Source of the DNA: Candidatus Peribacteria bacterium
Lineage (GTDB): Bacteria > Patescibacteriota > Gracilibacteria > Peribacterales > Peribacteraceae
Reading direction: 5' to 3'
Assembly: GCA_041691135.1 (NCBI GenBank)
Contig: JBEPVF010000001.1
Coordinates: 1 to 64,000 of the forward strand
Length of the DNA: 64,000 nucleotides
In this document: positions 5,987 through 29,910 of the stretch, one piece after another
Layout: each line of letters begins with the position of its first letter
Numbering within the stretch: position 1 is the stretch's first letter
Notes under the pieces: model-generated
The model's database searches: none
Told to the model about the DNA's origin: nothing
Seen by the model: the letters and a program-made list of their open reading frames with translations, nothing else
Program-made: the position numbers and the translations under genes

Positions 5987-5989
5987 CCA

Positions 5990-6299: not shown

Positions 6300-6481
6300 A
6301 TAAAATACAACCGCAACCCGATACTCTTTATAAATGCGTGCCTGTCATTATTGGCATTCCTACGTCGTAAGGGGCAACCCTGCGCGGCCGTAGGACATGC
6401 CTTCAGGCATCGAGTACGGGTTGCCCGCCTGGGTTGTCCCTTTGGACTTGAAGGTGGTTTTATCCCCTTCATCTCTTTTTT

Positions 6482-7783: not shown

Positions 7784-7976
7784 AATTGAATGTGAGGAGG
7801 TTTTCAGTGATTGAAGGCCTCCTTAGTTCTTGGCAAGCCCCACAAATGCCAATGTCGCGTAACTCTTGGCACAATACCTGATGATTGTGTGGCGACTTGC
7901 ACGTTTTCGGGGCAGTAAAATATGCGAGGAGAAGCAAACTTGGGTTTTGGTGCATTTCCTTATAGAATTCGCATAA

Positions 7977-9914: not shown

Positions 9915-9915
9915 A

Positions 9916-11607
9916 ATGCTTAAAGAAATTTACATCAGTAATTTTCGGTCAATAAAAGAGTTGCATTTGCAGCCGAAAAATCTTTGTGCCCTTATAGGGG
10001 CTAACAGTGCTGGTAAATCCAATATTCTTAAAGCTATTGATTTGGTATTAGGTGAAGGCTGGGCGACTAAAGCTAAAGTGGCTAAGGAACTATTTTATGA
10101 CTTGTCTCAGCCAATAGAAATTCATATTAGTCTTTTGGAGTCAATTCCTTGGCAGTACTACGGTAGGAACGTGCAAGTAAACAAAATTACTTTGCATATG
10201 ACTTATGCACCACTGTCTTGTGAAGTGCGTCTTTGGTCTAATCATCCAAGTGACAATAGTGGTAAGGGTTATTATTTAAACGATGAATTTAAGAAGTCCT
10301 GTCACTTTATCTATGTGCCTTCGATTCGAAGGCTAGAAGCACAGATGTATGTTTCCAATTGGACTCTATTAGGAAAACTAATGCGTACAATTTATGAAGA
10401 ATATGTACGTCATTACGATAATGATGAAGATAGGCTGAAATCTGAGTTTAAAACAATAATGCAGCCCCCAAAGGAGTTTTTGGAAGCAGATTTTGACCAA
10501 AATAAAATTACATTTGCTAGATTCAGCAGTGTTTTCATACGCCACTGTCAGGCAAATAGTGCAGGGCTGGCAGATGGCTTTATGCCCAACCTTAATATCT
10601 ACAATCCAAATTGGTTCTATAAAACACTTCAGATATGTATCCAAGAAGACTCTTCAGATAAAGTATTTGATGCTGAAGAAGTAGGTTCAGGGATGCAAAA
10701 TTTAATTTTACTTTCTATCTTTCAGACTTACGCTGAACTTGTAGGCGGACGGGCGATATTGGCTATAGAAGAACCAGAGTTATTTCTCTACCCGCAGGCA
10801 CAAAGGCATCTTTACAAAAGTTTTAGAGAACTTACAAAAAACTCGGTTGATGATAGTACTGGTGAAATTAGCAGAAAAGGCACCCAAATTTTTTACACGA
10901 CACATAACCCCAATTTTGTTGATGCCCAAAGGGCAGACGAAATCGAATTAATAGCAAAAAATCGAGAAACTGGAACGCATATCTTAGAAAAAAGTGAATT
11001 AATTACATCAGAATTTTTGAAACAGGCACAATTCGCTACTTACACGCACTTCAATACGGAAAGAAATGAATTGTTTTTTGCTAAGAAAATTTTATTAGTC
11101 GAGGGTGCAAGCGACAAAATTTTGTTTGCAACTTTATGCAAAGAAAAATGGGGTATTGATACTGACAAGACAGGAATTTCTATTATTGAGTGTGGCGGAA
11201 AATTAGGCGTATTGTTTTTTATAGGGGTATGCCGACTATCGGGAATTGAAAAGTTTTTTGCAGTTTGGGATAGTGATAATGATTCCTCAGAAGAAGTTAG
11301 AGATGAACATAGCCAATTTCAGTATACCACTGAAAATGGTAGGGGGCTGCAAATAGCAGGCACTCTTGAACAATTCCTGCAAACTAAATTCCCTGCTTCC
11401 TTGTTTAGGGCAAAATATAAAGTTAAGGATGCTTATGATTGGGCATGTACCGTAGTTGTTGAAGAAATACCTATTGAGTTTGATGGGGTCAGGAATTTTC
11501 TTGGTTCTGAAGCCGCCTCCACTCCTGAAGAGGAAACACAAGTAGAGGAAGTAGTGACCACAGTTGCTTATTCAAGTGATATTAGAATCGAAGACTTACC
11601 ATTCTAA
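9916..11607 (+). CDS. OLD-family ATP-dependent nuclease (ABC ATPase + TOPRIM)
   Basis: ISNFRSI, GANSAGKS, GSG signature, IEEPELFLYP, TTH, FFAKKILLVEGASD, D.D TOPRIM motif. Confidence 0.92.
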   Translation: MLKEIYISNFRSIKELHLQPKNLCALIGANSAGKSNILKAIDLVLGEGWATKAKVAKELFYDLSQPIEIHISLLESIPWQYYGRNVQVNKITLHMTYAPLSCEVRLWSNHPSDNSGKGYYLNDEFKKSCHFIYVPSIRRLEAQMYVSNWTLLGKLMRTIYEEYVRHYDNDEDRLKSEFKTIMQPPKEFLEADFDQNKITFARFSSVFIRHCQANSAGLADGFMPNLNIYNPNWFYKTLQICIQEDSSDKVFDAEEVGSGMQNLILLSIFQTYAELVGGRAILAIEEPELFLYPQAQRHLYKSFRELTKNSVDDSTGEISRKGTQIFYTTHNPNFVDAQRADEIELIAKNRETGTHILEKSELITSEFLKQAQFATYTHFNTERNELFFAKKILLVEGASDKILFATLCKEKWGIDTDKTGISIIECGGKLGVLFFIGVCRLSGIEKFFAVWDSDNDSSEEVRDEHSQFQYTTENGRGLQIAGTLEQFLQTKFPASLFRAKYKVKDAYDWACTVVVEEIPIEFDGVRNFLGSEAASTPEEETQVEEVVTTVAYSSDIRIEDLPF

Positions 11608-11608
11608 A

Positions 11609-14296: not shown

Positions 14297-14527
14297 TTTG
14301 TAGGCATCACACAAACGCTATCGAATCCCTACAATACCCTTTACGGGATTTAAATTTCCAGGACATACATTTTACTGTGAGTACAACGTCAGGGGCGCCT
14401 CAATTGAAGCTAGGGGCATACAGGGGCATGTCCAATAGTAAGGCATAAAGCTGTGACGGGGTTTAGGGTAGTTCAGTTGTGAATTTCGCGTTTGTACACG
14501 AGGACAAGCAAGCTATTCTGGGTTGCA

Positions 14528-16051
14528 ATGTACATAACAGCGTCGATTCTTTACGATTACCTGTGCTGTCCGCATCGCGTTTGGAGAGATAGGTACGGCC
14601 CCCAAGATGAAAAAATACAAGAAACAAACCCTTTTGTTTCATTGCTTTGGGAAAGAGGCGTAAGGCATGAGAAAGAAATGGTAATGAAATTGGGTGAATT
14701 AGTGGATATTAGCAAAGGTTCAATCGAGGAACGCATCGCCCAGACGACAGAGGCCATGAAGAATGACACGCCGCTTATCTATCAGGGTGTCATCATGTAC
14801 GGCGACTTGCTGGGCATCCCTGACTTGCTGCGAAAGTTACCTGATGGTTTCTATGTACCTGTGGATATTAAATCAGGGTCAGGAATGGAAGGCGCGGACG
14901 AAGAGGTGGGAGAAGAAGGAAAACCTAAAAAACACTATGCGGTTCAACTCTGCTTGTACGTCGAAGTGCTTTGCCGTCTGGGGTTTGCAAAAGAGAAGCG
15001 CGGCATCATTTTGGACATAGACAGACAAGAGGTGGAATACATCCTCGACCAACCGCGAGGAAAAAAGTCCCCTGAGACGTGGTGGGATTTATACGAAGAT
15101 TTGAAAGAAGAAGTGAAACCGCTTCTTCAGGGGACGAAGAAAAATAAGCCCGCGATGGCTGGGTGCTGCAAGCTGTGTCCGTGGTTCAACAGTTGCAAGA
15201 AATGGTGCAAAGAATCTGATGACCTCACATCGTTGCCTGGACTTGGGCGAAGCAGAAGGGACACGATTAACGATGATTTGAAGATTGAAACCGTAACCCA
15301 GCTTATCTCTCTTGATGTCCAAACAGTGCTGGAAAGGAAAAAGAAGGAGAAAGTGTTTATGAGTGGGATAGCGGAGAAAACGCTTACCAGCTTCCTAAAA
15401 CGTGCAACGATTTTCAAAGTAACCCAGAAGCCCGTTCTGTATCAGCCTGTTACCTTTCCAGTCGTCTCAACGGAGTTGTTTTTTGACATTGAAGACGACC
15501 CGACACAGGAATTTGTCTATCTGCATGGCGTTTATGAAAGAAAAGGGAAGGAGGAGAAATTTTATTCTTTTGTGGCTAAAGACCAGACTTCAGAGGCGGA
15601 AGAAGCATCTTGGAAAGATTTTTGGAACTATATCTGGTCGCTTCCGAAGGATGATTACGCGGTGTATTACTATTCTCATCACGAAAAGACGACGTACACG
15701 CGCATGAGAAAGAAGTACCCAACTGTTATTGATGAAAACACTCTCAATGCGTTTTTTGAGAATCCCAATGTCATTGACCTGTATTCGGCAGTTGTGAGGC
15801 CATTCACCGACTGGCCGCTGTGGAGTTATTCGCTGAAAGAAATAGCACAGTATCTTGGTTTCAAATGGAGAGATGAAACCCCGTCAGGCGCACTTTCGAT
15901 TCAATGGTTTAACGATTACATGGAAACAAAGGACGAAAGTATTTTGAAAAGAATTCTTGAATACAACGAGGATGACTGCAAAGCCACAATGGTTTTGAAG
16001 GATGGTTTGGCTAAATTGGCTTTGGAAACTGTCAAAGTGCCAATAAAATGA
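14528..16051 (+). CDS. TM0106-family RecB-like nuclease with RNase H-like domain
   Basis: CPHR, GIPDLL..PVDIK, QLCLY, C..CPW...C, FFDIE, YSLK, YNEDDC. Confidence 0.88.
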   Translation: MYITASILYDYLCCPHRVWRDRYGPQDEKIQETNPFVSLLWERGVRHEKEMVMKLGELVDISKGSIEERIAQTTEAMKNDTPLIYQGVIMYGDLLGIPDLLRKLPDGFYVPVDIKSGSGMEGADEEVGEEGKPKKHYAVQLCLYVEVLCRLGFAKEKRGIILDIDRQEVEYILDQPRGKKSPETWWDLYEDLKEEVKPLLQGTKKNKPAMAGCCKLCPWFNSCKKWCKESDDLTSLPGLGRSRRDTINDDLKIETVTQLISLDVQTVLERKKKEKVFMSGIAEKTLTSFLKRATIFKVTQKPVLYQPVTFPVVSTELFFDIEDDPTQEFVYLHGVYERKGKEEKFYSFVAKDQTSEAEEASWKDFWNYIWSLPKDDYAVYYYSHHEKTTYTRMRKKYPTVIDENTLNAFFENPNVIDLYSAVVRPFTDWPLWSYSLKEIAQYLGFKWRDETPSGALSIQWFNDYMETKDESILKRILEYNEDDCKATMVLKDGLAKLALETVKVPIK

Positions 16052-16111
16052 TTTCAGAATCGCGAAATTGCTTTTGAAAAGCAGTCGAAAGACATTATTA
16101 TAAAAGTGCAA

Positions 16112-16345
16112 ATGTCCAAAACTCCTACACCAAAGACTAAATCATTTTGTGTTATTGGTGCTGTCCAATATGAGATGCTTGAAACGCACGAAAAAAACTT
16201 TCAAATTGCAAGCTGGTTCCATCGCCATTGTTCGCATTCAGAGGACAACCCCGAATTGGAACAGGTGATGCTAGATAAGACGCGACCGAATGGTTACCAC
16301 GAAGACGGCGACAAAATTTATGTCCTTTCACGTATGCCAAAATGA
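16112..16345 (+). CDS. small hypothetical protein translationally coupled to LSR-A
   Basis: ATGA overlap with the integrase start at 16342. Confidence 0.5.
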   Translation: MSKTPTPKTKSFCVIGAVQYEMLETHEKNFQIASWFHRHCSHSEDNPELEQVMLDKTRPNGYHEDGDKIYVLSRMPK

Positions 16346-18123
16346 AAGATAGCAGAATTGAGTTTCGTGCTGTGGGGTACATTAGAGAATCCACCAGAAC
16401 CCAAACTGTTGGAGGCTATCGTGCGGGTTATCAGAAAGAGAGAATTGAAGGTTATTGTAGAAAGCATGGTTTTAAACTTGTGAAAATGTTTGAGGATTCA
16501 GGGAGTGGGAAAGATGTCAGACATAGGCCTAACTTTGAGATGATGCTTGCCTATGCGAAAGCAAATGATATTCAGTTTATCGTTGTTGAAGACATCAACA
16601 GGTTTTACCGCGAGTTTAAAGATGGCATGGACTTAGAAAAAAAGCTTTACGATGAAAACGACATCATTGCAATCGACCCTGAGGATTACAACCCGCGTGA
16701 ATACAAGGAATCAGGATTCAGCCCCCAAGCGTGGCGGCAACGCGCACATCGTCGCGTGGATGCTGAGGGAGAAAGAAGGGACATAATCGAAAGAGTGACT
16801 CAGGGGTATCAAAAGAAAAAAGACGGCCAGATGTACGTTGGGCCGCTGCCTTATGCTGTTGAGTGGGTTGACCCTGATTTCCCAAAATACATCAGGTATA
16901 AAAAACATGAAGGCAAGGTGGTGCAGGAAATTTTTAACTTGTACATGACTGGAATGGGCTGCACTGCGATTGCCAAACAGCTAAACGAGAAAGGCTACGT
17001 CATCGAGGAAGGTAAAAGAGTTGAATTGACACGTAAGAGTGGCCTTCCCTATTTCAAGCGCATCACAAAAAACGTACCTTTTACGTTTGACCGTATCCGC
17101 CATATTTTAAGTAATAAAACCTACATTGGTCGCCAAAACACAGGCACTTCGCTACGTTTGTTTACACTCGATGCAAACGACGAAGAGGTCTTAATATCGC
17201 CATTAATTGATGATGATACTTTCAGTAAGGCGAGGGAACAATTAAAGATAAATCGACGTGGCAAAAACCCTAACAATAAAAATAGTAGACAGACAAACCG
17301 TGTTTATCTCTTTCAGGGCATCGTGAGACACGCCGATTGTGGTAGCCCAATGTACGGGGTTCCTGAAAAGTTACGCAACGGCGAAGTTACAAGGCGATAT
17401 CAATGTTCTGCGAGTAAACAGGGGACATGTAATGCTAGGCTGAAGTCACTACGTGCTGATGAAGTTGAATCCCAAATAATTGAGTTATTAAAAGAGATAA
17501 AATTAAAGAGTATTGGGGAAATAGAGTCTGAGTTACGGGAGATTATTAAAATTACCGCAGCCGAGTTAAGCAGGCCACAATCGTTTGAAAATCTAACTCT
17601 TGCCGACAAGGCCGAATTAAAATCTTTAAAAGACGCATTGGGTAATGCTTATGATTGGTTGCTTGCCGAACAAAAGACGGTCATGGAGGAAAGACTGCAA
17701 AAAATTGAACAGAAAGCTAAGGACAAAAGCGTTGAAATGCTTAGGTACTACGATTTCCAAGAGATGAGGCGTATGTTTGTTGACTTATCACAATCATTCA
17801 CCGACCTTCAAAATCTCGCTGCCCGTCAGGAATTACTCAGTATCTTGTTTCAGAAAGTTTTGATTGGGAAGCCGTTGCCCAAGCAACCACATGAACATGC
17901 CAAGGCATTTCACTGGATGAAAGGCGCGGTAGCCGATTATGAGGCATTCAGGGATGCAACAAAGCTAAAAACATTGTTACGACAATTCACGCCCATGCTT
18001 TTTGAGGAGATTCATGTTGGTGACGGCGATGAAGATTCACCAATTAAGAAGGTAATCTTTAAGCCCACAGGGCTATTCCTGTTGATGACTGATGGAGTTC
18101 GTAACTCTAAAAAAAAGAGTTGA
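16342..18123 (+). CDS. large serine recombinase/integrase of island A (LSR-A)
   Basis: YIREST catalytic motif, RP.FE.ML, N..YIG, HADCGSPM...YQC...C zinc ribbon, coiled coil; abuts attR-A. Confidence 0.92.
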   Translation: MKDSRIEFRAVGYIRESTRTQTVGGYRAGYQKERIEGYCRKHGFKLVKMFEDSGSGKDVRHRPNFEMMLAYAKANDIQFIVVEDINRFYREFKDGMDLEKKLYDENDIIAIDPEDYNPREYKESGFSPQAWRQRAHRRVDAEGERRDIIERVTQGYQKKKDGQMYVGPLPYAVEWVDPDFPKYIRYKKHEGKVVQEIFNLYMTGMGCTAIAKQLNEKGYVIEEGKRVELTRKSGLPYFKRITKNVPFTFDRIRHILSNKTYIGRQNTGTSLRLFTLDANDEEVLISPLIDDDTFSKAREQLKINRRGKNPNNKNSRQTNRVYLFQGIVRHADCGSPMYGVPEKLRNGEVTRRYQCSASKQGTCNARLKSLRADEVESQIIELLKEIKLKSIGEIESELREIIKITAAELSRPQSFENLTLADKAELKSLKDALGNAYDWLLAEQKTVMEERLQKIEQKAKDKSVEMLRYYDFQEMRRMFVDLSQSFTDLQNLAARQELLSILFQKVLIGKPLPKQPHEHAKAFHWMKGAVADYEAFRDATKLKTLLRQFTPMLFEEIHVGDGDEDSPIKKVIFKPTGLFLLMTDGVRNSKKKS

Positions 18124-18124
18124 G

Positions 18125-19681
18125 TCACCGTCTTTGTCGAATCAGTTTAACAACCAGCCCGGCCCACCATTCAAAACAGACAGCCTTCTTCTCAGCCTGA
18201 CGGAAAGGAGCTCTTGGCTGCCAGCTCAAGATTTTTGCTTGTACGGAATAGTTCGATGCAAAGGAATTGAGAATCGCCTGCCTGATTTTGGGCGATCCAT
18301 ATAGAAATGCTTCTCGAAGCAGATCCATGAGTTCAAAGCTGCGTATGACTTTTTCGATCCACGCTGTACCTCTATCGTGGAGCTGGTTTGTAGCAGCCTG
18401 CAATTCATCGCGCCGTGCTTTGAGCTGGGATAGCTGGACATCTACGGCATCAGCCATGCCCATCTCGACTGCCTTATCGCGCTGACGAAAGAGAGAACCT
18501 ATTTCCTGCTGCACCTTGGCGTATTCGGCTTGCAGGCTTTCTCGACGTTCAATTTCGTTCTCGCTTTTCTCCTCGTGGATTTTCAACAGTCTTTCCCTAA
18601 GGTTTCCTAAATCGCTCTGGCTCAAAGTCACCTCAGAAAGAATGCCATGCAATTGAGCCTCTACTTCGTTTTGTGAGATTATGACTCCACATTTGGTTTC
18701 TGAGTTTTTGCATTCGTAGTAAATGTACTTTCCCTTAGCTCGATATGAGCAAAGTGAGCGGCCGCAGAGCGGGCAACGAAGTACGTTTGCGTAATGGAAA
18801 AGCTCACGGAGTGTTGGAATCTTTGGACGAGCCGCATTGCTGTTTCGCCCCGCAAGGACAAGTTGCGTACGATTCCACAGGTCTTCAGGCACGATGGCTT
18901 TGTGACGCCCCTTGCTAATTTTGTTGTTGAACCGGACGCAGCCTTTGTAGATGGGGTCATGGAGGATGTTGTTAATGGCTGTGACTCCTAGGACATTGTT
19001 TCTCTTGCTCCGGAGGCCAATTCTTTTCGCTTCTTTTACCAAGTCTCGCAAGGAATAGCTGCCGCTTATAACTAGTTGAAAGAGGCGTAGGATATGCGGA
19101 GCACGCTCAGGATCCACTTCCAATACAGGAGTGCCATCGGGCAGTTTGATGTTGTTGTACCCCGGTCCCACCGGCCCCATATGTTTCCCTTCCGCAGAAC
19201 GCATTTCCATAGCTTTCAAAATACGGTCGCCTTTGTCCCTACTGTCTTTCCAGCTCATGGCGTTCTCTAGGGTGAGCATGAAGATGGTGTTGGAGTCTGC
19301 ACCTGTGTAGCGTTTCCCGTCTGTGATATCCATCGCCTGGATTCCTCCATCGACGAGGCGCTGCACAAAGGCCCCTGAATCAGCGTGGTTGCGGCTGATG
19401 CGATTGGGATGAACGACGATGATCCCTCTCACCTCTCCCTTGTCTGCCATCGTCATTATCTGATTGAACGTGGGACGACCCGGACGGTATGCGCTCTGCG
19501 ACTCTTCCATTACTTTCAAAGGATAATGAGCTGTGTCTGGCAGTGTTGCGTGATGCCCCTCGATCATTTGTCGTTGGTCTTGCAATGTATGCACCTGCTT
19601 ATCTTCTGTATCGGTTGATTTTCGACAGTACCCGATCCAGTACTGAGTGGCAGCCTGTGTTTTCTTCTTTTTCCGTGGCAT
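18125..19681 (-). CDS. large serine recombinase/integrase of island B (LSR-B), with a non-native C-terminus
   Basis: YCRKST, PNRISRN, DPIYKG, H.AIV, CPLCG...YYEC...C; the last codons read antisense through the tRNA 3' end and attR-A. Confidence 0.93.
   Translation of the reverse strand: MPRKKKKTQAATQYWIGYCRKSTDTEDKQVHTLQDQRQMIEGHHATLPDTAHYPLKVMEESQSAYRPGRPTFNQIMTMADKGEVRGIIVVHPNRISRNHADSGAFVQRLVDGGIQAMDITDGKRYTGADSNTIFMLTLENAMSWKDSRDKGDRILKAMEMRSAEGKHMGPVGPGYNNIKLPDGTPVLEVDPERAPHILRLFQLVISGSYSLRDLVKEAKRIGLRSKRNNVLGVTAINNILHDPIYKGCVRFNNKISKGRHKAIVPEDLWNRTQLVLAGRNSNAARPKIPTLRELFHYANVLRCPLCGRSLCSYRAKGKYIYYECKNSETKCGVIISQNEVEAQLHGILSEVTLSQSDLGNLRERLLKIHEEKSENEIERRESLQAEYAKVQQEIGSLFRQRDKAVEMGMADAVDVQLSQLKARRDELQAATNQLHDRGTAWIEKVIRSFELMDLLREAFLYGSPKIRQAILNSFASNYSVQAKILSWQPRAPFRQAEKKAVCFEWWAGLVVKLIRQRR
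18129..18180. other. attR of island A (CC at 18154-18155), overlapping the remnant of attL of island B
   Basis: CGTCTTTGTCGAATCAGTTT-AACAA-CC followed by the tRNA 3' strand. Confidence 0.88.
18154..18169 (+). pseudogene. 3' part of the split host tRNA-Tyr
   Basis: CCAGC-CCGGCCC-ACCA pairs with GCTGG (2294-2298) and GGGTCGG (2236-2242); it does not match the T-stem of the copy at 2449. Confidence 0.93.
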
Positions 19682-19686
19682 AGAGG

Positions 19687-19790
19687 GGAGTGGGAAGCTT
19701 GTTAATCACCTGTTATTTACCTGTTAATTCAATGCCCACAGTGGGCGCTCCAGCTTCCCACTCCGCATAGACGGCGTGGTGGAGCGCCCA
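19687..19790 (-). promoter_or_regulatory. structured leader/operator upstream of LSR-B
   Basis: Two perfect interleaved inverted repeats (13 bp and 11 bp) plus three TGTTA repeats at 11-bp period. Confidence 0.6.
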
Positions 19791-19792
19791 TT

Positions 19793-20437
19793 CTAGGCAC
19801 TTGAAACAACGTCTAAGGTCGGAAGTGGGAAGCACTGACTAGCATACAACTGTGTCGGCATGGTACGCGAGAGATACTCGGAAATCGTGCTGAATTTTGC
19901 CTCGTGATGTACCCAAGGAGCCAATGGTGTCGTGATATATGAGGGGACTAAGTACTCATGGCATTCCAAAGAACTTGCTACGGCACGAAGTGGTAATTCT
20001 TCGATGGAATCCGGCAGGTCAGGGACGACAATTTCCACTTTCATCACTGGATCCGGCTCAAACTTGTAGGCGTGAATCAGAAAGGGTCTGCCATTCCACA
20101 GGATGCCGCGTGTGACGATAGGGTGCTGACGACTATGTCTATCAACACGCCTGGCTACTTCTGCTGCCAGCTTCGTCCAGTGGATTCTTTCGGAAGGCCA
20201 GAAAGGTGAGTGCTCCCAGCCTTCTAATTCATTGGAAGCTTTACGGAGCGTGCGAGCAGTCAGTTCTTCTCTCTTGAATAACCGATATACCTGCAAGATG
20301 TCTCCTCGGTCATGAATGGCGGCCGTATTCGCATGACGTAAGCAAATATTCCCCATGGAGTGGATCTCCATGAGGTAGTCGTGAATAGCTTCACTTGCGA
20401 GGGACAGGCCGTCGTTTGGATCATGGGCTTCTTCCAC
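19793..20437 (-). CDS. uncharacterised island protein, homologous to 2885-3652
   Basis: Shared motifs HPIV, GRPFLIHAY, KVEIV, PSYITT. Confidence 0.72.
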   Translation of the reverse strand: MEEAHDPNDGLSLASEAIHDYLMEIHSMGNICLRHANTAAIHDRGDILQVYRLFKREELTARTLRKASNELEGWEHSPFWPSERIHWTKLAAEVARRVDRHSRQHPIVTRGILWNGRPFLIHAYKFEPDPVMKVEIVVPDLPDSIEELPLRAVASSLECHEYLVPSYITTPLAPWVHHEAKFSTISEYLSRTMPTQLYASQCFPLPTLDVVSSA

Positions 20438-20490
20438 GATCCTATTTCTATCCTTGGGGTAGCTGCCATGCGTTGGTCACTGTTGGCAGT

Positions 20491-21618
20491 TCAGACTAGT
20501 CGCTCCACTCCGGGGGTAGTGCATTCAAAGAGGAGATCAGGCAGATTTTTTTGCCGCTTGGCCCATCGATTCAATGCTCTAACAGCCTGATAAAGCTTCT
20601 TCCAATTGCCGAAGGGATCGAGGTTATATGAGGTAGGTCGCCATTCATTCCAGATAGTTTCACAGTCCACGATGCTGCCAACTTGTTGGCAGTGAGCGTA
20701 GAGTTTGTCGCTCAGCTTCGCGTAATCATAATTTTTAGGAAGCAAAAATTCATCATCGTCATACTTTAGGCGGAAATCTCCTAAATATCGCACCGTCATT
20801 CTTCGGCTGTTGCTCTTTGGACTAGTAGATTGAGTCGCCTCCTGCTGCGCCATAAACAGCGTCAGATCCTTGTAGACCAACTCAAAGTCGTCTTTGATGC
20901 TCTTCACAGCTGGTTTGCCGATAATAAATTGTGGTCTTTGAATGGCATCATATACAGAATCAAAAGCACGAACATGGAGCGCGAACATCGATTGATTGAG
21001 GATCATATCCAACCGATCCATGTCTTCCTCGATCTTTTGAATCAAGTCGCTTGCCTCCGGCGTAACAGTCATTTTTGGAGGCTGAAGTTCAAGGTCTATA
21101 AATATGCGTATTACCTCGTATTGAACTAGAAAGGGGAAAGACGATGTACGGGTGAACGCCTCAATTTGATAAAAATGGTCGCCAAACATTCCGCCGAATA
21201 CTTCCCATTTTTCCCGATGCACAAAGAGGTCGAGCATCTGCTGTGAAGAAAGCCACTCAGGGTCCTTATGTCCCGACCTTGCCCAATGGTTGAAATGCTT
21301 TTCTTTCGATACAATTTTTTCTCGCTCGATCAACGGGTATAGGTCTTCCAGTGATTTATGAATTCCATCGATTAAATCAGTAAATTCCGAACTGACTGCT
21401 AGACGAGGATAAAATTCAGCTCTGCGCATAAATTCTTCGTGAAGGGCAAGATTTCTCCCTAGAAACGGGTAAAACTCATATACTAAGGCATTTCCGAACT
21501 GAGTCTCATTATCAAGAGACATGACGTGATCATGTATATCACCTAGTTCCTGCCGAATCAGCGAAGGAGTGGGAAGCATATCGCCATAATGGCAGATTCC
21601 TGCCTGTCTCAGAAGCAC
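20491..21618 (-). CDS. hypothetical protein, possible C-terminal winged HTH
   Basis: 375-aa ORF; C-terminal LYQAVRALNRWAK segment after a beta-hairpin-like region. Confidence 0.6.
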   Translation of the reverse strand: MLLRQAGICHYGDMLPTPSLIRQELGDIHDHVMSLDNETQFGNALVYEFYPFLGRNLALHEEFMRRAEFYPRLAVSSEFTDLIDGIHKSLEDLYPLIEREKIVSKEKHFNHWARSGHKDPEWLSSQQMLDLFVHREKWEVFGGMFGDHFYQIEAFTRTSSFPFLVQYEVIRIFIDLELQPPKMTVTPEASDLIQKIEEDMDRLDMILNQSMFALHVRAFDSVYDAIQRPQFIIGKPAVKSIKDDFELVYKDLTLFMAQQEATQSTSPKSNSRRMTVRYLGDFRLKYDDDEFLLPKNYDYAKLSDKLYAHCQQVGSIVDCETIWNEWRPTSYNLDPFGNWKKLYQAVRALNRWAKRQKNLPDLLFECTTPGVERLV

Positions 21619-21635
21619 CGAATTTTGCCGAATTT

Positions 21636-22220
21636 CTATAACCGGCTAAATAGCGCGTCATGCATTGCAATGATCTCTTCCGGGGAGTGATTGCCCTGTG
21701 CCTTCAGGTATCTCCTATATGACCGAGTTGGCATTCCACGGTAGTATTGGCGTTTTATCTGGGGGTACAACTGATCTGAGAGCCAGATATTTTTCAAGAC
21801 ACGGAACTTTTGGTCGTACCAGCACTGTGATTGATACCAGCAGCCTGTGCAGTGCCTGCAAACGTAGTACTTGCCCCAGTTGTAGAGGATACGACAGCGT
21901 CGGCCACAACCTACTACAGGGCATTGGAACCACCAGCGCTTAGCGCCGTAATTACAGGGCGTTGTAACCATAGAAATACGGTACTTCAAGGACTCCCATT
22001 CCTCCCCATGCCGTCTGTGCCGGTAATCAAGTTCCATGTAAAAATGGTCGTCATCACTCTGATCAAGGGAGTATCGAACGGACGATTGAACTACACCGTG
22101 CCGAAGCCAATTCAGGACACCTGAATGACTATGATTGTCGAGCAATTGCCATTCTTTGAATCGCTTCATGTCGATTGAATCAAGACTATCTATTTGTGTG
22201 CTGTCGGCGTATTTAGGCAT
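21636..22220 (-). CDS. Cys-rich zinc-finger protein typical of integrative elements
   Basis: PCNYG.KRWWFQCP..GCGRR..ILY...YVCRHC...YQSQ. Confidence 0.75.
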   Translation of the reverse strand: MPKYADSTQIDSLDSIDMKRFKEWQLLDNHSHSGVLNWLRHGVVQSSVRYSLDQSDDDHFYMELDYRHRRHGEEWESLKYRISMVTTPCNYGAKRWWFQCPVVGCGRRCRILYNWGKYYVCRHCTGCWYQSQCWYDQKFRVLKNIWLSDQLYPQIKRQYYRGMPTRSYRRYLKAQGNHSPEEIIAMHDALFSRL

Positions 22221-22328
22221 GTTGGGATCTCGAAATCATTAGAGATAGTATACCTCCTTGTTCTCCCTAAATTTAAATAAGACCAAAAGTGGTGGTAGAC
22301 TTTAAGTACCTATTCCCTTACTTGTTCA

Positions 22329-22712
22329 ATGAAAATCCACAATCAATTCTGGGGCTCTACGATTGGCTTGGCAGTTGGCTGGATAGCTATCCTGGCATTT
22401 TTTGGCGGGGCCGCCAAAGGTGAGCCGAATGCTTTCCTTGAAATGGGGCTGGCTTTACTATTTGGTACATATGCCTATCGTTCGTTAAAGCGTCGTCTCT
22501 TGGGACTTAAGGCGACAACGCGTTGGAGTGTACTATTAGAATATACATCTCTGTTTATCGTAGTTTGGGTTTTCTTAGGTGGATTAGGAAATGGCAGAGG
22601 AGTTGATAGGCCATTTGAGTATTTTATCTTTCCGCTTTGGACATTCATTGCTTACGTCTTTATAGCAATTGTGGGCAGAAAGAACGCATCTCAGTTGGTT
22701 ACTATTTCCTAA
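22329..22712 (+). CDS. 4-TM membrane protein
   Basis: Four hydrophobic segments in 127 aa. Confidence 0.7.
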   Translation: MKIHNQFWGSTIGLAVGWIAILAFFGGAAKGEPNAFLEMGLALLFGTYAYRSLKRRLLGLKATTRWSVLLEYTSLFIVVWVFLGGLGNGRGVDRPFEYFIFPLWTFIAYVFIAIVGRKNASQLVTIS

Positions 22713-22716
22713 GGGC

Positions 22717-23694
22717 ATGTCACTTATATATGGAATCAAAACCCAAGATGGAGTCTATTTGGCTTCTGATACGCGCTTAACTAAGAGAACCGATTCAGGT
22801 GCTGTTACTTACGAAGATGATTTTTGCAAATTCCATACCTTCGGAAAATTCATGTACTCGGTCGTCGCAGGCGACGCAAATTTGGCAAGTTACTTGCTGC
22901 AAAAAATTCATGCATCCGATCTAATAAAGTGTGGCTATTCCGAATTTAGAAAGAAAGTCGAAGAATTTATCAGAAATGAAGTAGGGCTCTACCCGAAAGT
23001 TTCACGTGCTCCTCATGTTGTATTCATATTTGCCGGTCAAGATCCAGACAGAAAGGATGAAATGAGTATGGATAAATGGAAGGAATACGCTTTGTTCATG
23101 CAAAATGGGCAGAACATTAGTGTTCCGGTGCGTATGACTGAACCCCTAAAAGAAGCCCTCTTAAAGGCGGCTACTGAAAAAAAACAGGGCAAGATTCTTG
23201 AGCTCAATAAACCATACATAGGTTTGTTTTCTCTTGAAGTTAAGGTGTCAAAAAGCATTGAAATAACGATTGTCGATTCTGAATGGGCAAGCTACTTGAT
23301 GTTTGGTCCAAAAGGACTCACAGCTAAAGACGCACCTCCTGATTTAGTCGTAAAGCTAGACTTAGGAAAGAAAAGTCCCGGCCTTACTAAACGTGAGGTA
23401 ATTTTTCAAAATACCGCCGAATTGATCTTTTTCTTCTTCAAAATGATTCCAAAACATAAGTTAAATACAGTGGGAGGCGCCATCTTCACAGCCTACATTG
23501 GTGAATGGGGTGCACTGTTTCCTGAAGGTGAACTAGGAATCTTGCAGCCAGATGGAAGTCCTCCCCAGCCTGTCAGCTATGTCTTAGAATATGAAGGAAA
23601 ATTCTGTGTGAAAACTGGCGATAAAATTAAACCCTTACGCTTTGTGAGTTCGTTCTATCAGTCAGGTAGTCAAATGGATCTAAGCCTTATTTAA
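22717..23694 (+). CDS. Ntn-hydrolase / proteasome beta-like fold protein
   Basis: M-SLIYGI...GVYLASDTRLT N-terminus, K(F)H..., AGD, TVGG.I; start reset to the ATG at 22717. Confidence 0.65.
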   Translation: MSLIYGIKTQDGVYLASDTRLTKRTDSGAVTYEDDFCKFHTFGKFMYSVVAGDANLASYLLQKIHASDLIKCGYSEFRKKVEEFIRNEVGLYPKVSRAPHVVFIFAGQDPDRKDEMSMDKWKEYALFMQNGQNISVPVRMTEPLKEALLKAATEKKQGKILELNKPYIGLFSLEVKVSKSIEITIVDSEWASYLMFGPKGLTAKDAPPDLVVKLDLGKKSPGLTKREVIFQNTAELIFFFFKMIPKHKLNTVGGAIFTAYIGEWGALFPEGELGILQPDGSPPQPVSYVLEYEGKFCVKTGDKIKPLRFVSSFYQSGSQMDLSLI

Positions 23695-23770
23695 CTCGCC
23701 ACCACCCTATAAATTAATTGCCTCTTATCCTCATAGACTCTTCTATTTAAACAGATAGAATCAACCATAC

Positions 23771-24175
23771 ATGTTTCAAAAGGGTTTTCTTCTCTTGGCC
23801 TTCGCCACAAACATCATCCTTGGCAGCGTTTGCATGATGCCAATGGCGATGGCCGCTGAACCGCTGCATAACGACGCAAATGTTATGGGGCAGATGGTGA
23901 CCCCTATCGCTCCTATGTCCCATGCCGACTGTACCCATTGTTCACATCGCTCAGAGAAAAAAGAACAAAAGCCTTCATCGTGTACCGGACACTGTCTCTC
24001 ACAGGCAACAAATGCGAATTCGACGAATGTGGTCGCAGGATCAACTCAATTGATAGCCACTCTCCCTACTGCCTTTCCGCTTCCATGGAGCGGGAATGAA
24101 AGTGCAGTGACGCCTCTGACGATCAATACATCACCACCGCTTAATCCCAGCCATTCTGTCGTGCTGAGATTGTGA
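23771..24175 (+). CDS. secreted Cys/His/Met-rich metal-binding protein
   Basis: Signal peptide, CMMPMAM, HADCTHCSH, CTGHC; first gene of the copper cluster. Confidence 0.6.
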   Translation: MFQKGFLLLAFATNIILGSVCMMPMAMAAEPLHNDANVMGQMVTPIAPMSHADCTHCSHRSEKKEQKPSSCTGHCLSQATNANSTNVVAGSTQLIATLPTAFPLPWSGNESAVTPLTINTSPPLNPSHSVVLRL

Positions 24176-24236
24176 AACAGGAAATATTTCTGCCGAGTCA
24201 TACTCACTATTGTTTTACCTGTTTTCACTTATCACT

Positions 24237-25598
24237 ATGATCGAATCATCACATCAGCGCTGCGCATCATTCCGTATAAACGGTATGACATGTGCCAGCT
24301 GCGAGCTTCTCTTGGAACGGAAACTTAAAGCGGTTACGGGCGTCAAAGAAGTGACTATCAATCACAGGACAGGCATCGCCCGGGTGACGGCTGACACCAA
24401 TGCACTCCCAAGCTATGAGCGTATTGCCTCGGTTATCCGCAAAGCTGGCTACTCGCTTGCCGACGAAGAAGCGCCGACAGTCTCGTCTGTTGCGCAGGAT
24501 AAACGAAAATGGATGGAGATTGGCGGCTCGCTTCTCATAATCTTTGCTGTCTATAAGTTCCTGCAAGCGTTTGATCTGGTATCACTGGCGCCTTCTACCT
24601 CTGGCGCACTTTCCTTCGGCGGAATCTTGGTCATCGGACTCGTGGCAGGGACTAGCAGTTGTTTAGCGGTAGCTGGTGGTCTGCTCATTGCCATGGCAGC
24701 CAAATACAATGAAGTCCATCAGGCAGAGACCACATGGGACAAGCTCAAACCGCTCTTACATTTCAATATAGGACGGCTGGCCTCTTACTTTTTCCTCGGC
24801 GGCCTCGTGGGATTACTGGGGCAATCCATCACACTCTCAACAAAGATGACGGGGTATATGAGTATCGGTATCGCGCTGGTGATGCTGTATCTCGCCCTCA
24901 CAATCCTCCAGCTCATTCCGAAGGGTAGCTTTCCCATCCGACCGCCCAAGCGTCTCTCTCACTGGATAGCAGGACTTTCCGAGAGCAGACACCCTGCGGC
25001 ACCTTTTGCTCTCGGTGCGCTGACATTCTTCTTACCGTGTGGCTTTACGCAATCGCTTCAGCTCGTCGCGCTGGCATCGGGGAGCTTTATCACTGGGGCA
25101 CTGACGATGTTCACGTTTGCGTTGGGGACACTGCCATCACTGCTCGGCATCAGTGCCATTTCCTCAATTGTCAGGGGAAACAATTCACGGCTACTCCTTC
25201 GCTTCGCCGGTACCTTCGTATTCGTATTGGCACTCGCCAATATCAATAGCGGGTTTGCCCTCACGGGAATCAATCTTGCATCGGCTTTCAGTAGTCCGCC
25301 GCAAGCTCCCGCCGTTGTACCTGTAATTAGTGGAAACGTGCAGGAGGTATCGATGAAAGTTACGACCGCTGGCTATGAGCCGAGCAACCTCACCATTAAG
25401 GCAGGCATTCCGGTGAAGTGGATGATCGACGGCAGCCAAGCGTACGGCTGCACCAGCCAGATCGTCATTCCCGAACTCAATGTGTCACAGTCGCTATCGC
25501 AAGGCATCAACGAAGTGAATTTTACGGCACCGAATCCGGGACAACTCGCGTTCAGTTGTTCGATGGGCATGGTGCGCGGTTCGTTTACCGTTATTTAA
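24237..25598 (+). CDS. HMA + DsbD_2/TauE-like membrane domain + cupredoxin-like domain protein
   Basis: GMTCASC, SSCLAVAGG, FNIGRL, FFLPCGFTQ, F.LGT.P, FSCSMGM. Confidence 0.88.
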   Translation: MIESSHQRCASFRINGMTCASCELLLERKLKAVTGVKEVTINHRTGIARVTADTNALPSYERIASVIRKAGYSLADEEAPTVSSVAQDKRKWMEIGGSLLIIFAVYKFLQAFDLVSLAPSTSGALSFGGILVIGLVAGTSSCLAVAGGLLIAMAAKYNEVHQAETTWDKLKPLLHFNIGRLASYFFLGGLVGLLGQSITLSTKMTGYMSIGIALVMLYLALTILQLIPKGSFPIRPPKRLSHWIAGLSESRHPAAPFALGALTFFLPCGFTQSLQLVALASGSFITGALTMFTFALGTLPSLLGISAISSIVRGNNSRLLLRFAGTFVFVLALANINSGFALTGINLASAFSSPPQAPAVVPVISGNVQEVSMKVTTAGYEPSNLTIKAGIPVKWMIDGSQAYGCTSQIVIPELNVSQSLSQGINEVNFTAPNPGQLAFSCSMGMVRGSFTVI

Positions 25599-25617
25599 TT
25601 TTTTTTCTTCCTTCTGT

Positions 25618-25782
25618 ATGGGTTCTCTCAATTGGCAAGATATTCCCGCTGAGTCTCCGTCGCCGTTGGCATCTGATTCTGCACATCCACTTACGGCGAG
25701 CTCATCGAGCCCATGGTTCGCTGTCACGATGGGGCTCATGGGCTTCATCGTTGGCTATATGCTGGCAAATCTCTCTTTCTAA
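25618..25782 (+). CDS. small single-TM protein (54 aa)
   Basis: ORF read manually; fills the operon gap; WFAVTMGLMGFIVGYML. Confidence 0.45.
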   Translation: MGSLNWQDIPAESPSPLASDSAHPLTASSSSPWFAVTMGLMGFIVGYMLANLSF

Positions 25783-25799
25783 TTCTTTCGCTTCTCCCT

Positions 25800-26015
25800 A
25801 TGAATACCACCGTCTCCATACCTGGTATCCACTGCCCATCCTGTGCGGCTCTTATCAAGGATGTCAGCAGTGAATTTCCAGCAATCAAGCAAATTGATGT
25901 TGATGTAAATACTAAGAAAGTCACGCTCGACCATGATGAAAACTTCGACATGCAGCAATGGACAACTGAAATCGAAGCTCTTGATGAGAAATACAAAGTT
26001 CAATCCGCTTCCTAA
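25800..26015 (+). CDS. copZ: copper chaperone (HMA domain)
   Basis: IPGIHCPSC, 71 aa, directly before the ATPase. Confidence 0.82.
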
Positions 26016-26022
26016 TTTTACC

Positions 26023-29000
26023 ATGACCTCCCAATGCACTCTCTCCATCACCGGTATGCACTGCGCCAGTTGCAGTGCCCTCATCACTCGTAAGCTCAAG
26101 AAAACTGCTGGTGTGGAGGATGCGAACGTGAATCTCGCAACCTCAAAAGCAAGTGTTTGCTTTGATCCATCCATGGTGCACGAGCATGATCTTGTGGCGG
26201 CAGTAAAATCCGCTGGCTACGGTGCAGAGGTGCGAAGCGAGCATGACCATCACGGTGTAGAGTTAGACCGCAAACGACAAGAAGCAGAAATCACAGAATA
26301 CCGAAATAGGTTTCTTTGGGCGCTCATTTTGAGCCTGCCCTTGCTCGGCTTCATGATTCTGTCGTTCTTTCCGAGTCTGCCGTTCCATACGACTTTGATG
26401 CCGTATATGGGAATTATCTCGCTCATTCTCGCAACGCCCGTAGAGTTCTGGCTTGGCCGAGGGTATTTCAAAGGGTTCTGGTCGAGCATCCGTATGCTCT
26501 CGTTTGGGATGGATAGCCTTGTAGCTATCGGCACTCTCACGGCCTACCTCTACAGCGTCTATAACCTCGCCCGGCACGTTATCACGACTGGCACAGTTTT
26601 AGGTGAGATACCTGATCTGTATTTTGAAGTTGCCGCGCTGCTCATCACCTTTGTCCTGCTTGGAAAATGGATGGAGGCACGGGCAAAAGGACGAACGAGC
26701 GAGGCGATTCAGAAACTGATGAGTCTTCAGGCGAAAACTGCCAGAGTGCTCCGCGATGGGCAGACCGTGGATATTCCGATTGAGGAAGTGCAGATCGGCG
26801 ATACCGTACTTGTCCGTCCCGGTGAGAAAATCCCCGTCGATGGCTCTGTGCTCAAAGGGCTGACATCTATCGATGAATCAATGCTGACTGGCGAGAGTAT
26901 TCCAGTAGAGAAGAAAGAAGGTGATCGTGTGTTTGGCGCGACGATCAATGGCAATGGCTCTATTGAATTCAAAGCCGAAAGAATAGGAAGTGAAACAGCG
27001 CTTGCTCGTATTATTAAATTCGTAGAAGAAGCCCAAGGCTCCAAAGCGCCCATCCAAGACTTTGCGGATTGGGTGTCTTCATGGTTTGTCCCTGCCGTCA
27101 TCATCATTGCCATCGTCACGCTCATTGGCTGGCTCTTTGCCGGGGCTACAGTCACATTTGCTTTGCTTGCCGCCGTATCCGTCCTTGTCATTGCCTGTCC
27201 TTGTGCGCTCGGTCTTGCAACACCAACTGGCATCATGGTTGCGACCGGCAAGGGTGCTGAATATGGAATTCTTATTCGTGGCGGCGCGCCACTGGAAGCG
27301 GCAAACAAAATTAATGTCATTGTGTTCGATAAGACAGGCACGCTTACCAAGGGGAAACCCGAAGTGACCGATGCTCTCGGCCTGACTATGGATGGGATGG
27401 ACGCGTTGCGCATCGCGGCCAGCCTGGAGCAAGGCTCCGAGCACCCGCTGGCCGACTCCATTCTGAGACGCGCCAAGGAGCAGAATCTTGTCCTAAGCGA
27501 GGTCACGCAGTTTCAAGCCGTACCCGGGCGTGGTATCCAGGGCATTGTGGACGGCACAGAGTACTTCTTCGGAAATCGCAAGATGATCGAACGCCTGAAG
27601 GTGAGCATCGGAGAAAGGGAGGATTGGATCACGGCCATTGAAACGCAAGGGAAGACCGTGATGCTACTTTCCGATGCTACAAAGATCATCGGCATCGTCG
27701 CCGTGGCCGACACGATCAAAGACACCTCCAAAGAAGCGGTCAGCCAGCTCAAACACTTAGGCCTGCAGGTCTATATGATCACGGGCGATAATAAGCGAAC
27801 AGCAGAGGCTATTGCACGTCAGGCGGGCATTGAAAACATCCTTGCCGAAGTGCTGCCGGAACAAAAAGCCAGCGAGATAAAGAAGCTACAAGCCCAAGGA
27901 AAGAAAGTGGCTATGGTCGGTGACGGTATCAATGATAGCCCAGCGCTCGCGCAGGCAGAACTTGGCATTGCTATGGGCAGCGGCACGGATATTGCCATGG
28001 AGACCGGAGGCATCGTGCTTGTGCGGAATGATTTGCGCGACGTAGTGACGGCTATCCGGCTAAGCAAAGCAACAGTGAACAAAGTGAAGCAGAACCTATT
28101 CTTTGCCTTGTTCTACAACGTGATCGGTATCCCCATTGCCGCACGTCTCTTGATGCACTGGGGCATTGTGCTGCGACCAGAGCTGGCAGGGCTTGCCATG
28201 GCATTCAGCTCCGTTTCCGTTGTCACCAATTCACTCCTCCTCAAAGGTTTCCACCCGACACGTAGAAACTGGCTCTCGGATATCGCGCCATTCGTCATGA
28301 TCATCGGCTTTACGGCTGTCTTCTTTCTTTTCGCACAGATTAGCGGTGCTACACAAATGGTTCCTGCTACTAGTGAATCAGTTACGAATAGTGACCATTC
28401 GATGGTAAGCGGTGAGCATGGAATGGTCATGAAACCAGGAACACTCCATCTCACCGTACAGGAAGAACATGGAAATTCGCCTGATGACATCGCCTTCTCT
28501 ATTCATGAAGGAACCAGTGTCTTTGAAAATTATGGCATCAGTCATACACAGAAGATGCACTTCATTGTCGTACGCGACGACCTGCAATATTTCAGCCACC
28601 TGCATCCAACTATAGACAACCAAGGGATCTGGCATGCCGCTTTCACACCGAAAGCAGGTGGTACCTATTGGCTCTATGCGGACTTTGCAGATCAGCAAGG
28701 CGGCTCCTACTATCCGCGCTTTGAAAAGACCTTTGCAGGCGATAAGGGACGCTATGAAGTGGTGAAGAATTTCGCTATCTCGAAGACCGTTGACGGCTAT
28801 CTCATCAGCTACGAGCCAACTATTTCCGGCAATATTATGACATTTAAATACAGCATCCTTGATTCACATGGAACACCTGTAGCATTGGAGGATTATCTAG
28901 GAGCAAAAGGACATAGTATTTTACTTACGCAGAACGGAGACTTTATTCATACGCATACCGAAACAGATCCGCCGTCTTTCTCTACGACCGTTGCGCTAAA

Positions 29001-29076
29001 CACGTTCTACCGAATGTTCACACAGTTCCAGATTAATGGAAAAGTAGAAACAGTTGCTTTTGATTGGCAATCTTAA
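26023..29076 (+). CDS. copA: Cu(I)-translocating P1B-1 ATPase with a fused C-terminal His-rich domain
   Basis: GMHCASC, TGES, CPC, DKTGT, HP, GDGIND, YN and M..SS motifs. Confidence 0.93.
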
Positions 29077-29168
29077 TCCACAATCTTTTACTAATTTTAT
29101 GCGCTCTTACGTGTCCAGATGCGGCGGTCGCGGCAAATGATGGAGAGGTAAGATACACTGTCAGCGGT

Positions 29169-29552
29169 ATGACACTACGCCCCATTGTTCTTACAGCCAT
29201 ACCCTTATTCATTCTTCACGCTGTGGAAGAGTATTTTACGAACTTCTACCATGTCGATGAGTCCTATCTGTGGGTAAGAAATACGATCCTACTGGGGATA
29301 AGCAACGATACCTTGGCGTTCGTGGCATATCAGACAGTGTTCATACTCTTGCTTCTCATAGCCTATGTCTTTGTGCAAAGGCAAAAGGTGGTTGCTGTTT
29401 TGATCGGTCTTGTTTTTGTCTTAGAGCTTAGTCATCTTTTCCTTGGTCTTATGGAAGGACGCTACTATCCCGGTCTAGTATCTTCTCTGCCACTCATAGG
29501 AGTCGGCTTTGTCTACTGGCATACTCTTCTCTACCGTAGCACTTCATCATGA
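29169..29552 (+). CDS. HXXEE-domain membrane protein
   Basis: LHAVEEY and Y.PGL motifs, four TM segments. Confidence 0.75.
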   Translation: MTLRPIVLTAIPLFILHAVEEYFTNFYHVDESYLWVRNTILLGISNDTLAFVAYQTVFILLLLIAYVFVQRQKVVAVLIGLVFVLELSHLFLGLMEGRYYPGLVSSLPLIGVGFVYWHTLLYRSTSS

Positions 29553-29668
29553 AATACATTTTTACTGTGCTATTCATGGGGGCAGTCTTCCTTACTGCTT
29601 GTTCTAGTTCTAACTCGGGATCCTCCTTCGGTGAACACATGCAGAGAGGCATAAGCCACATCAAATAG
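29549..29668 (+). CDS. small lipoprotein (39 aa)
   Basis: MKYIFTVLFMGAVFLTAC lipobox; ATGA overlap with the upstream gene. Confidence 0.45.
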   Translation: MKYIFTVLFMGAVFLTACSSSNSGSSFGEHMQRGISHIK

Positions 29669-29757
29669 CCGATAATACTGACAGCTCTTCCATCCGGTAC
29701 GGCGGCGCCATGGCACATGCGTGTCATTTTTAAAGGCTAGGTGATGCTCAATTACGT

Positions 29758-29850
29758 CTAAATAGCTAATCCTAAGAGGTTTGTCGCTTCTCGCAATCTA
29801 TCAAATGTCTCTGCTATTTCGGTTCGAGCGTCGTACAATTCTGACCACCA
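29758..29850 (-). pseudogene. stranded C-terminal segment of LSR-B (WWSELYDARTEIAETFDRLREATNLLGLAI*) within attR-B
   Basis: In frame with the LSR-B ...FEWW codons when joined at CCACCAT. Confidence 0.72.
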
Positions 29851-29910
29851 TCAATATAGCGAAAAAGCAGTAGCAACTTTCCGGAAATCTATAAAGAAAT
29901 AATAAATGAA

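Follow-up and report, generated by a model that had tools for sequence, protein, structure and literature searches.

Evidence that a large serine recombinase gene contains its own attachment site at a bacterial tRNA-Tyr gene

We have analyzed a stretch of 64,000 nucleotides (the window) from a Candidatus Peribacteria bacterium, whose genome assembly comprises 1.74 Mb in 35 contigs; the genomes of its relatives are 0.7-1.6 Mb in size. Within the window two islands, A and B, lie next to each other at a tRNA-Tyr gene (tRNA-Tyr #1), and our subject is the integrase gene of island B. It encodes a large serine recombinase (LSR), termed LSR-B, and its open reading frame (ORF) continues in the antisense direction into the tRNA gene. 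The coordinates of all the features are collected in Table 1.

By its domains and conserved residues LSR-B is an intact large serine recombinase. Pfam finds Resolvase (PF00239, E = 5e-14, residues 16-166) and Recombinase (PF07508, E = 3e-11), with Zn_ribbon_recom (PF13408) at 21.4 bits, under the cut-off of 25.3. The protein also matches the PHROG 95 integrase family (E = 4e-58). R20 and S22 are invariant across 51 sequences, as are the four cysteines C303, C306, C324 and C331, and Trp505; from its position in the Resolvase domain S22 would be the nucleophile. No tyrosine recombinase family was found among the 20 window ORFs scanned with Pfam, where LSR-B is assigned the three families just named. 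An AlphaFold2 model of the homologue P0007 has a predicted local distance difference test (pLDDT) score of 83.5, with long helices at residues 357-435 and a predicted helical tail at 512-539 that reaches a pLDDT of 88. The closest Foldseek matches are the SPbeta, phiC31, Bxb1 and LI integrases (E = 7.5e-19 to 5.7e-11). A search of viral contigs for relatives gave one distant match, at 23% identity.

The LSR-B ORF has no stop codon before the tRNA. It runs through the CCA end of the tRNA-Tyr fragment at 18154-18169 and ends in CFEWWAGLVVKLIRQRR and a stop. Its two tryptophan codons (WW) are the antisense of the CCACCA at 18164-18169 that forms the 3' end of this fragment. The opposite end of island B has a second CCACCAT in the same frame, and reading antisense from 29850 gives WWSELYDARTEIAETFDRLREATNLLGLAI followed by a stop codon. 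All of this had been seen in an initial annotation of the DNA, which also gave WWAGLGSNQRRRKPPDLQSGPFDHFGTDPHKEQHSQTCN and a stop as the C-terminus expected if island B alone were integrated; we reproduced that peptide by joining the two tRNA-Tyr pieces in a script. The annotation went on to propose that the attachment (att) site of the element, attP, lies inside the LSR-B gene, and that the state of the locus selects between three C-termini. The ORF, the cores and the homology of the tail agree with this. The CCACCAT 7-mer occurs 11 times in the window, compared with 6.8 expected, so that its repetition is not significant by itself and the weight rests on the peptide.

Table 1. Features of the tRNA-Tyr locus and of islands A and B, in window coordinates.
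Feature	Coordinates	Strand	Description
Island B	about 18170-29844		Small integrative element, 11.7 kb, at the 3' end of the tRNA-Tyr gene, with metal-resistance cargo
Island B cargo	24210..29552	+	HMA-DsbD_2-cupredoxin protein, heavy-metal P-type ATPase, HXXEE protein (Pfam scan)
LSR-B, present form	18125..19681	-	Large serine recombinase, 518 aa, P0001; own coding sequence up to the WW codons, last 12 codons foreign
tRNA-Tyr #1, 3' fragment	18154..18169	+	CCAGCCCGGCCCACCA; T-stem 3' strand, acceptor 3' strand, CCA
tRNA-Tyr #1, 5' part	2236..2307	+	T stem interrupted by island A; own T-loop box GGTTCGAGC at 2297-2305
Island A	2306..18155		About 15.85 kb, lying between tRNA-Tyr #1 and island B; insertion point the CC of that tRNA's T stem
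Island A, element-side arm at right junction	18125..18153		Antisense is the present tail of LSR-B, VVKLIRQRR and stop; inverted repeat of 2308-2332
attL(B) identity core CCACCAT	18164..18170		Reads ATGGTGG (the WW codons) in the antisense direction; spans the first acceptor bases, the discriminator and the CCA end
attR(B) identity core CCACCAT	29845..29851		
Detached 3' end of LSR-B gene	29758..29850	-	WWSELYDARTEIAETFDRLREATNLLGLAI and stop
Presumed P' half-site of attP	18171..18195	-	In LSR-B codons ...EKKAVCFE; putative extent, from core position and the half-site length in PMC3783163
T-loop box copy GGTTCGAGC	29821..29829	+	Exact; its distance from the core exceeds that in the tRNA by 5 bp; in tail codons A-R-T
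Partner gene	19793..20437	-	214 aa, directly upstream of LSR-B, without known family; candidate accessory or directionality factor

A search with the present form of LSR-B gave 92 proteins, and the 66 close ones (P0003-P0068) were sorted by regular expression. Forty-two have a tail of the form W..LYD(V/A)RTEI.ET...L..A, 16 end in a tRNA-antisense peptide (e.g. WWAGLDSNQR), five are other or short, three of them stopping at most two codons past the Trp, and three contain no anchor. One of the last, P0051, visibly ends in ...WLLRLDSNQ. The initial annotation had anticipated homologues that align through a W....D.RT tail and others with tRNA-antisense W..G.(D/G)SN tails, and both kinds exist, the first being the 42 and the second the 16 together with P0051. 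A peptide that it had predicted, RRRKPPDLQSGPFDHFGTDP, is present in P0043. The full-length homologues are typically 535-545 aa long, and LSR-B up to WW plus 28 residues comes to 534 aa. The detached segment at 29758-29850 (the stub) is identical to residues 507-523 of P0007 at 13 of 17 positions. Its 30 codons (29850..29761) align with columns 527-553 of 583 in a 37-sequence family profile (hhalign 97.3%, E = 1.9e-11), and it is the only match in the window below E = 0.2 in tblastn with homologue tails (E = 9e-9).

This layout is not confined to the window. We compared 44 homologue tails by tblastn with 22 sequences, namely the window and 21 loci whose copies look integrated. A far-end stub lies upstream of the LSR gene on the same strand, with E <= 1e-3, in 10 of the 22 (the window, L036, L041, L116, L120, L121, L123, L125, L135 and L136). 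The targets are tRNA-Val, Asn, Tyr, His and Ala, and the element spans in the nine other loci are 7.8-11.1 kb. No stub was found at this threshold in 12 of the 22 (L035, L037, L038, L039, L040, L115, L118, L119, L122, L126, L127 and L128); for several of these the flank available may be shorter than the element, and L040 has a match at E = 0.026 that is cut by the start of the locus. In L116 (582-10018) stub and LSR are 9.4 kb apart, the ORF stops right after the Trp, and ARAGORN calls no tRNA at the target.

The stub might instead be the remnant of an older, decayed LSR gene left by a tandem insertion. The tRNA-Tyr site has indeed been reused, by island A here, and LSR genes adjoin tRNA-Tyr in three of the nine relatives fetched (L027, L030 and L031). 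However, the stub begins exactly at the 7-bp core and in frame, and past it there is no more LSR-like sequence, only a terminator hairpin and then a host gene. The same far-end arrangement is also present at the nine other loci. We consider this origin extremely improbable.

The association with tRNA genes extends well beyond tRNA-Tyr. We surveyed 110 loci from genome and metagenome contigs, 92 of which have an assessable 3' end. In 72 of these 92 the reading frame of the LSR continues into a tRNA gene in the antisense direction, involving 15 isotypes, and in the other 20 it does not; five of the 20 have fewer than 120 bases left on the contig. The taxa named for the loci are Candidatus Peribacteria, Saccharibacteria, Paceibacterota, other Patescibacteria and Frigoriglobus. 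The Islander paper (2014-15) states that serine integrases are not known to target tRNA genes (PMC4383910). Our search of the open full-text literature, with subscription journals and supplements outside it, found no large serine recombinase at tRNA genes.

In eight pairs of left and right att sites (attL and attR) the shared cores are 6-12 bp long, and the first bases of every core are TGG, which is the CCA end read antisense. It is because the cores always begin there that Trp505 is invariant. Counted from this TGG, the T-loop box is at bases 17-25 in the tRNA arm, and the identical 9-mer in the element arm of the window is at bases 22-30, a displacement outwards by 5 bp. The tRNA 9-mer box fits best with a shift of +5 in five of the eight pairs, with 0 (the window), 1, 1, 3 and 4 mismatches, and one pair gives a tie. 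A subfamily at 25-30% identity has the same shift, as seen on comparing L053 (...QMLTFSINVRT) with L057 (...QMLRDLDSNQ) at tRNA-Gln. In solved relatives a similar displacement is on record. The zinc-ribbon motif of the Listeria LI integrase lies 5 bp nearer the centre in attB, the target site, than in attP (PMC3783163), and the corresponding offset is given as 4 bp for the SPbeta integrase (PMC11722253). By analogy we infer that the 5-bp displacement of the box is the known attP/attB offset of serine integrases. An Islander-type displaced tRNA fragment was not found at the far end of island B, where the junctions share only 7 bp and the 9-bp T-loop box is 5 bp out of register.

A different arrangement is found at L053 (1792-2097) and also at L055, where an LSR gene with an unbroken attP-type tail lies about 140 bases from an intact antisense tRNA-Gln with a core-like end. 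The spacer encodes a Gly/Pro-rich stretch, and the homologues P0072 and P0075 read through it.

Several observations weigh against placing the site and its boundary in this way. The box shift fails in two of the eight pairs, L120 and L116, the target of the latter not being a tRNA by ARAGORN. Inspecting the two element-side arms by eye for inverted symmetry, we find only TGA-N7-TCA around the core. Several of the loci are near-duplicates (L039/L040, L119/L120, L123/L125, L126-L128 and L035/L115), so that there are fewer than nine independent cases of a stub. No relative provides an empty site, because synteny has been lost. To the right (29852-31800) relatives match at 66-72% identity and inside a 399-aa gene only, with no tRNA in the seven loci scanned; to the left the tRNA-Tyr gene and its flank are conserved, and the sequence past the tRNA differs in all nine relatives. 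With synteny lost to the right of the tRNA, the boundary is set by core and tail homology alone. The contigs of run X1, from which the window may itself derive, compared with window positions 1500-19900, a span that leaves the far end of island B outside, contain no joints, and one contig of 19,253 bases covers 2477 onward; this comparison is silent on excision. Taking all this together we consider it probable that attP lies within the integrase gene and that the T-loop box is displaced between the two sites.

The DNA of the tail and the peptide it encodes both appear to be under constraint. The displaced box falls in the codons of the conserved (V/A)-R-T of the tail. Among 13 sequences, the conserved Arg is encoded by CGA in eight of ten cases and by AGA in two, the other three sequences having Lys or Gln. 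By comparison CGA accounts for 60 of the 480 Arg codons of the same genes (naive binomial 2e-6, with relatedness ignored). At distances of more than about 30 nt from the core, codons vary without a change of residue, Thr15 using all four codons and Leu19, Ala22 and Glu11 varying too. This suggests selection on the peptide as well.

It could nonetheless be argued that the overlap is neutral, the att site lying in the 3' end of the gene by compactness of the element, with a dispensable tail, isoforms that behave alike and no regulatory meaning. DNA constraint does account for part of the conservation of the tail, through the CGA-ACC box and the invariant Trp that is the CCA end. The chromosomal tails are also arbitrary in sequence and length, from an immediate stop (P0041, P0052 and P0059) to about 60 residues, which agrees equally well with mere tolerance of truncation and with regulation. 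In addition, the last 28 residues of the SPbeta integrase are reported as disordered by cryo-electron microscopy (PMC11722253). On the other side, conservation of residues despite codon change beyond about 30 nt points to peptide selection, the tail is modelled as a confident helix, and one face of that helix is on a predicted interface with a second protein. We give neutral overlap not far short of an even chance.

The second protein is the product of the partner gene. By tblastn it is encoded directly upstream of the LSR in 34 loci. It has no family match in Pfam, PHROG or NCBIfam, and the protein atlas gave no usable match. Compared with solved structures it gives nothing in Foldseek at E <= 0.001, and its best VIA-align Z score is 6.5, in the range that the tool calls common. 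A natural full-length pair was co-folded, using residues 290-551 of P0013 and the partner at L113:9215-9898. The scores were 0.77, 0.79 and 0.77, compared with 0.02 for the best of three controls. Among solved complexes 58 of 80 attain the mark used for these scores, and among mismatched pairs 2 of 110, counts that are only rough as our own alignments were used. The runs share at least 68% of their contacts, with a partner pLDDT of at least 78. Since no solved structure resembles the partner, a remembered structure of a complex with a recombination directionality factor is an unlikely source of the result.

In the model the interface on P0013 comprises residues 449-477, 491-494, 291-297, 315-321, 338-342 and 516-531, which include the helices after the coiled coil (449-477), strands of the zinc ribbon and, in the tail helix, a single face (516-531). 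The binding sites of known directionality factors are the zinc-ribbon domain and the base of the coiled coil, and in phiC31 also the extreme C-terminus, in the parts available of two reports (PMC11722253, bioRxiv 10.1101/2025.05.02.651858). On the co-folded model we regard the partner as a candidate recombination directionality or accessory factor. Further upstream, at 20491-21618, lies a 375-aa ORF without a known family, found at 28-47% identity in seven loci (L119, L120, L121, L124, L133, L037 and L122).

These elements can be put together as follows. LSR-B itself would have placed island B at the 3' end of the tRNA-Tyr gene, using an attachment site within the last 30 codons of its own gene and crossing over in the 7-bp core ATGGTGG of the WW codons. 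The coding sequence just before WW would be the P' arm, and that of the conserved tail the P arm. Integration would keep the tRNA whole and cut the integrase gene after WW, the tail codons landing 11.7 kb away, and the chromosomal LSR-B would then read antisense into whatever follows. The zinc-ribbon domain would read the T-loop box of the tRNA, and in attP the copy of that box 5 bp further out, to judge from the sequences and the solved relatives; this displacement would be the offset that sets directionality in the Listeria and SPbeta integrases. Island A would have inserted later, 16 bases into the tRNA, creating the third LSR-B tail, and we infer that island B was the earlier arrival. As island A moved the T-loop box 15.8 kb from the left junction of island B, island B is probably locked.

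What the change of tail might do is a further question. The initial annotation raised it as a possible directionality or stability switch, for which the codon variation outside the att footprint and the co-folded model give indirect support. Loss of the tail could simply inactivate the integrase, so that excision requires a full-length copy supplied in trans by an episomal sibling, as a parallel to the SSV1 integrase, whose gene is split into two large parts and thus disabled. In favour of this, the tail is conserved in 42 of the 66 homologues, and many contigs that have no tRNA bear full-length forms (L032, L033, L113 and L114), which suggests episomal or unintegrated copies. The chromosomal copies keep all the catalytic and DNA-binding domains, however, and the SSV1 gene is split in its middle whereas the LSR-B gene is split 30 codons from its end. 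Disablement therefore seems improbable to us.

A subtler effect is suggested by the co-folded model, in which the tail helix may help to hold the partner, of about 200 aa, on the zinc ribbon and the base of the coiled coil, such that chromosomal and episomal enzymes would respond differently to it. We put this forward tentatively, with the balance somewhat against it. Taken further, the integration state might be recorded in the gene itself, the episomal element making a full-length enzyme whose tail helix places the co-transcribed partner so that only attP x attB can recombine, and the same operon, once integration has removed the tail, making a pair that permits attL x attR. The same tail might then be read twice, as protein in the form of a partner-docking helix and as DNA in the form of a displaced mimic of the T loop for the zinc ribbon of the same enzyme. 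Such logic would extend over a large clade of serine integrases that target tRNA genes, in the small-genome bacteria of the candidate phyla radiation and in planctomycetes. We find this extended scheme doubtful. If true, the product of recombination would itself set the direction, without separately regulated expression of a directionality factor.

Island A has had its own effect on the tRNA gene. It crossed over at the T-stem CC (2306-2307 and 18154-18155), which corrects the initial annotation, and its two junction arms are inverted repeats. In addition to its own recombinase, LSR-A (16342-18123, +), it contains a complete tRNA-Tyr gene (2449-2534), a type III restriction-modification set and an OLD-family nuclease, among others. 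LSR-A is no close relative of LSR-B, since tblastn of LSR-B against its own genome matches only LSR-B itself. The two genes are convergent, with stop codons one base apart (18121-18127). Neither ARAGORN nor Rfam calls a tRNA at 18154, because just 16 bases of the tRNA remain there. These can be recognized by comparison, as five of the nine tRNA-Tyr genes fetched from relatives end in exactly the same 16 bases, following the T loop GGTTCGAGT. The split tRNA-Tyr #1 has not been restored, and scores 35.6 bits in Rfam compared with 62.5 for the other copy. These are the sole two tRNA-Tyr calls in the 92%-complete assembly, and with one of them split the host may depend on the copy carried by island A.

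The cargo of island A at 7977-14296 resembles a defence set, with an N6_N4 DNA methylase, an AAA_15/OLD-TOPRIM nuclease and a ResIII helicase with a RE_endonuc domain. The island also encodes a 255-aa serine recombinase with a partial Recombinase domain (5219-5986) and, just upstream of LSR-A, a 519-aa protein with an RNase_H_2 superfamily domain (14492-16051). In one relative (L028, G001:C21) the last 20 or so bases of tRNA-Tyr are directly repeated about 100 bases downstream, the signature of an island of another type, whose identity segment is longer, or of its remnant.

The closest known system is provided by the streptococcal integrative and conjugative elements (ICEs) in rumA, where a serine integrase gene contains the att site and the excised and integrated forms of the enzyme differ in length and C-terminus (Ambroset et al. 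2016, PMC4701971). A functional difference between the two forms is proposed there, and was left untested. In both systems, then, the integrated copy acquires a different C-terminus, but the rumA ICEs target a protein gene and their hosts are Firmicutes; no T-loop mimic, conserved tail motif or conserved partner gene is described in the part of that paper available (PMC4701971). The initial annotation had named SSV1 and Mx8 as its precedents. These are valid as far as they go, but the list was incomplete given that an att site within a serine integrase gene was already on record in the rumA ICEs. That much is thus known, and what is added here is the tRNA target, the mimic of the T loop, the conserved tail and the conserved partner.

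Among tyrosine recombinases, the integrase gene of phage Mx8 (IntP/IntX) contains attP, and integration is described as exchanging 112 residues for 13 to give a less active form (PMC4701971, PMC4383910). This replacement of the C-terminus resembles that of LSR-B, but the chemistry and site architecture are different and the replaced segment is much larger. The ORF of the SSV1-type archaeal integrases extends across attP and these target tRNA genes (PMC4383910), both features shared with LSR-B; they too are tyrosine recombinases. The Islander-type tRNA islands, unlike island B, carry a tyrosine integrase and a displaced fragment of the tRNA gene at the far end.

A serine recombinase at a tRNA gene is also found in the filamentous phage phiRSM, with a 13-base core at tRNA-Ser, located at the gene's 5' end in the text of the source and at the 3' end in its Table 1 (PMC4471427). 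In contrast to LSR-B this enzyme is of the small resolvase/invertase type, without recombinase and zinc-ribbon domains, and its attP is placed between genes in the part of that paper available (PMC4471427). The integrases of Listeria A118/LI, SPbeta, phiC31 and Bxb1 share with LSR-B the fold and a short identity core, and their zinc-ribbon motif is 4-5 bp nearer the centre in attB than in attP, an offset like that proposed for LSR-B; unlike LSR-B they target protein genes or intergenic DNA. We know of no report of attP inside the integrase ORF for any of these.

The finding has a practical consequence for annotation, as integrated copies are called with spurious tRNA-antisense tails, and the invariant Trp is the CCA end in disguise. 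The layout can serve as a naturally occurring test of site reading by serine integrases, with the conserved T-loop box as the target motif. As the codons of the integrase itself show the displaced copy of the box, a protein sequence alone might suffice to predict attP and attB, and this could help in mining for orthogonal integrases. More broadly, we are looking at a whole clade of serine integrases at tRNA genes of 15 isotypes, many of them in candidate phyla radiation bacteria, whose mobile elements are poorly known. If the swap of tail does alter control by the partner, a serine integrase would have in it a very simple means of setting direction.

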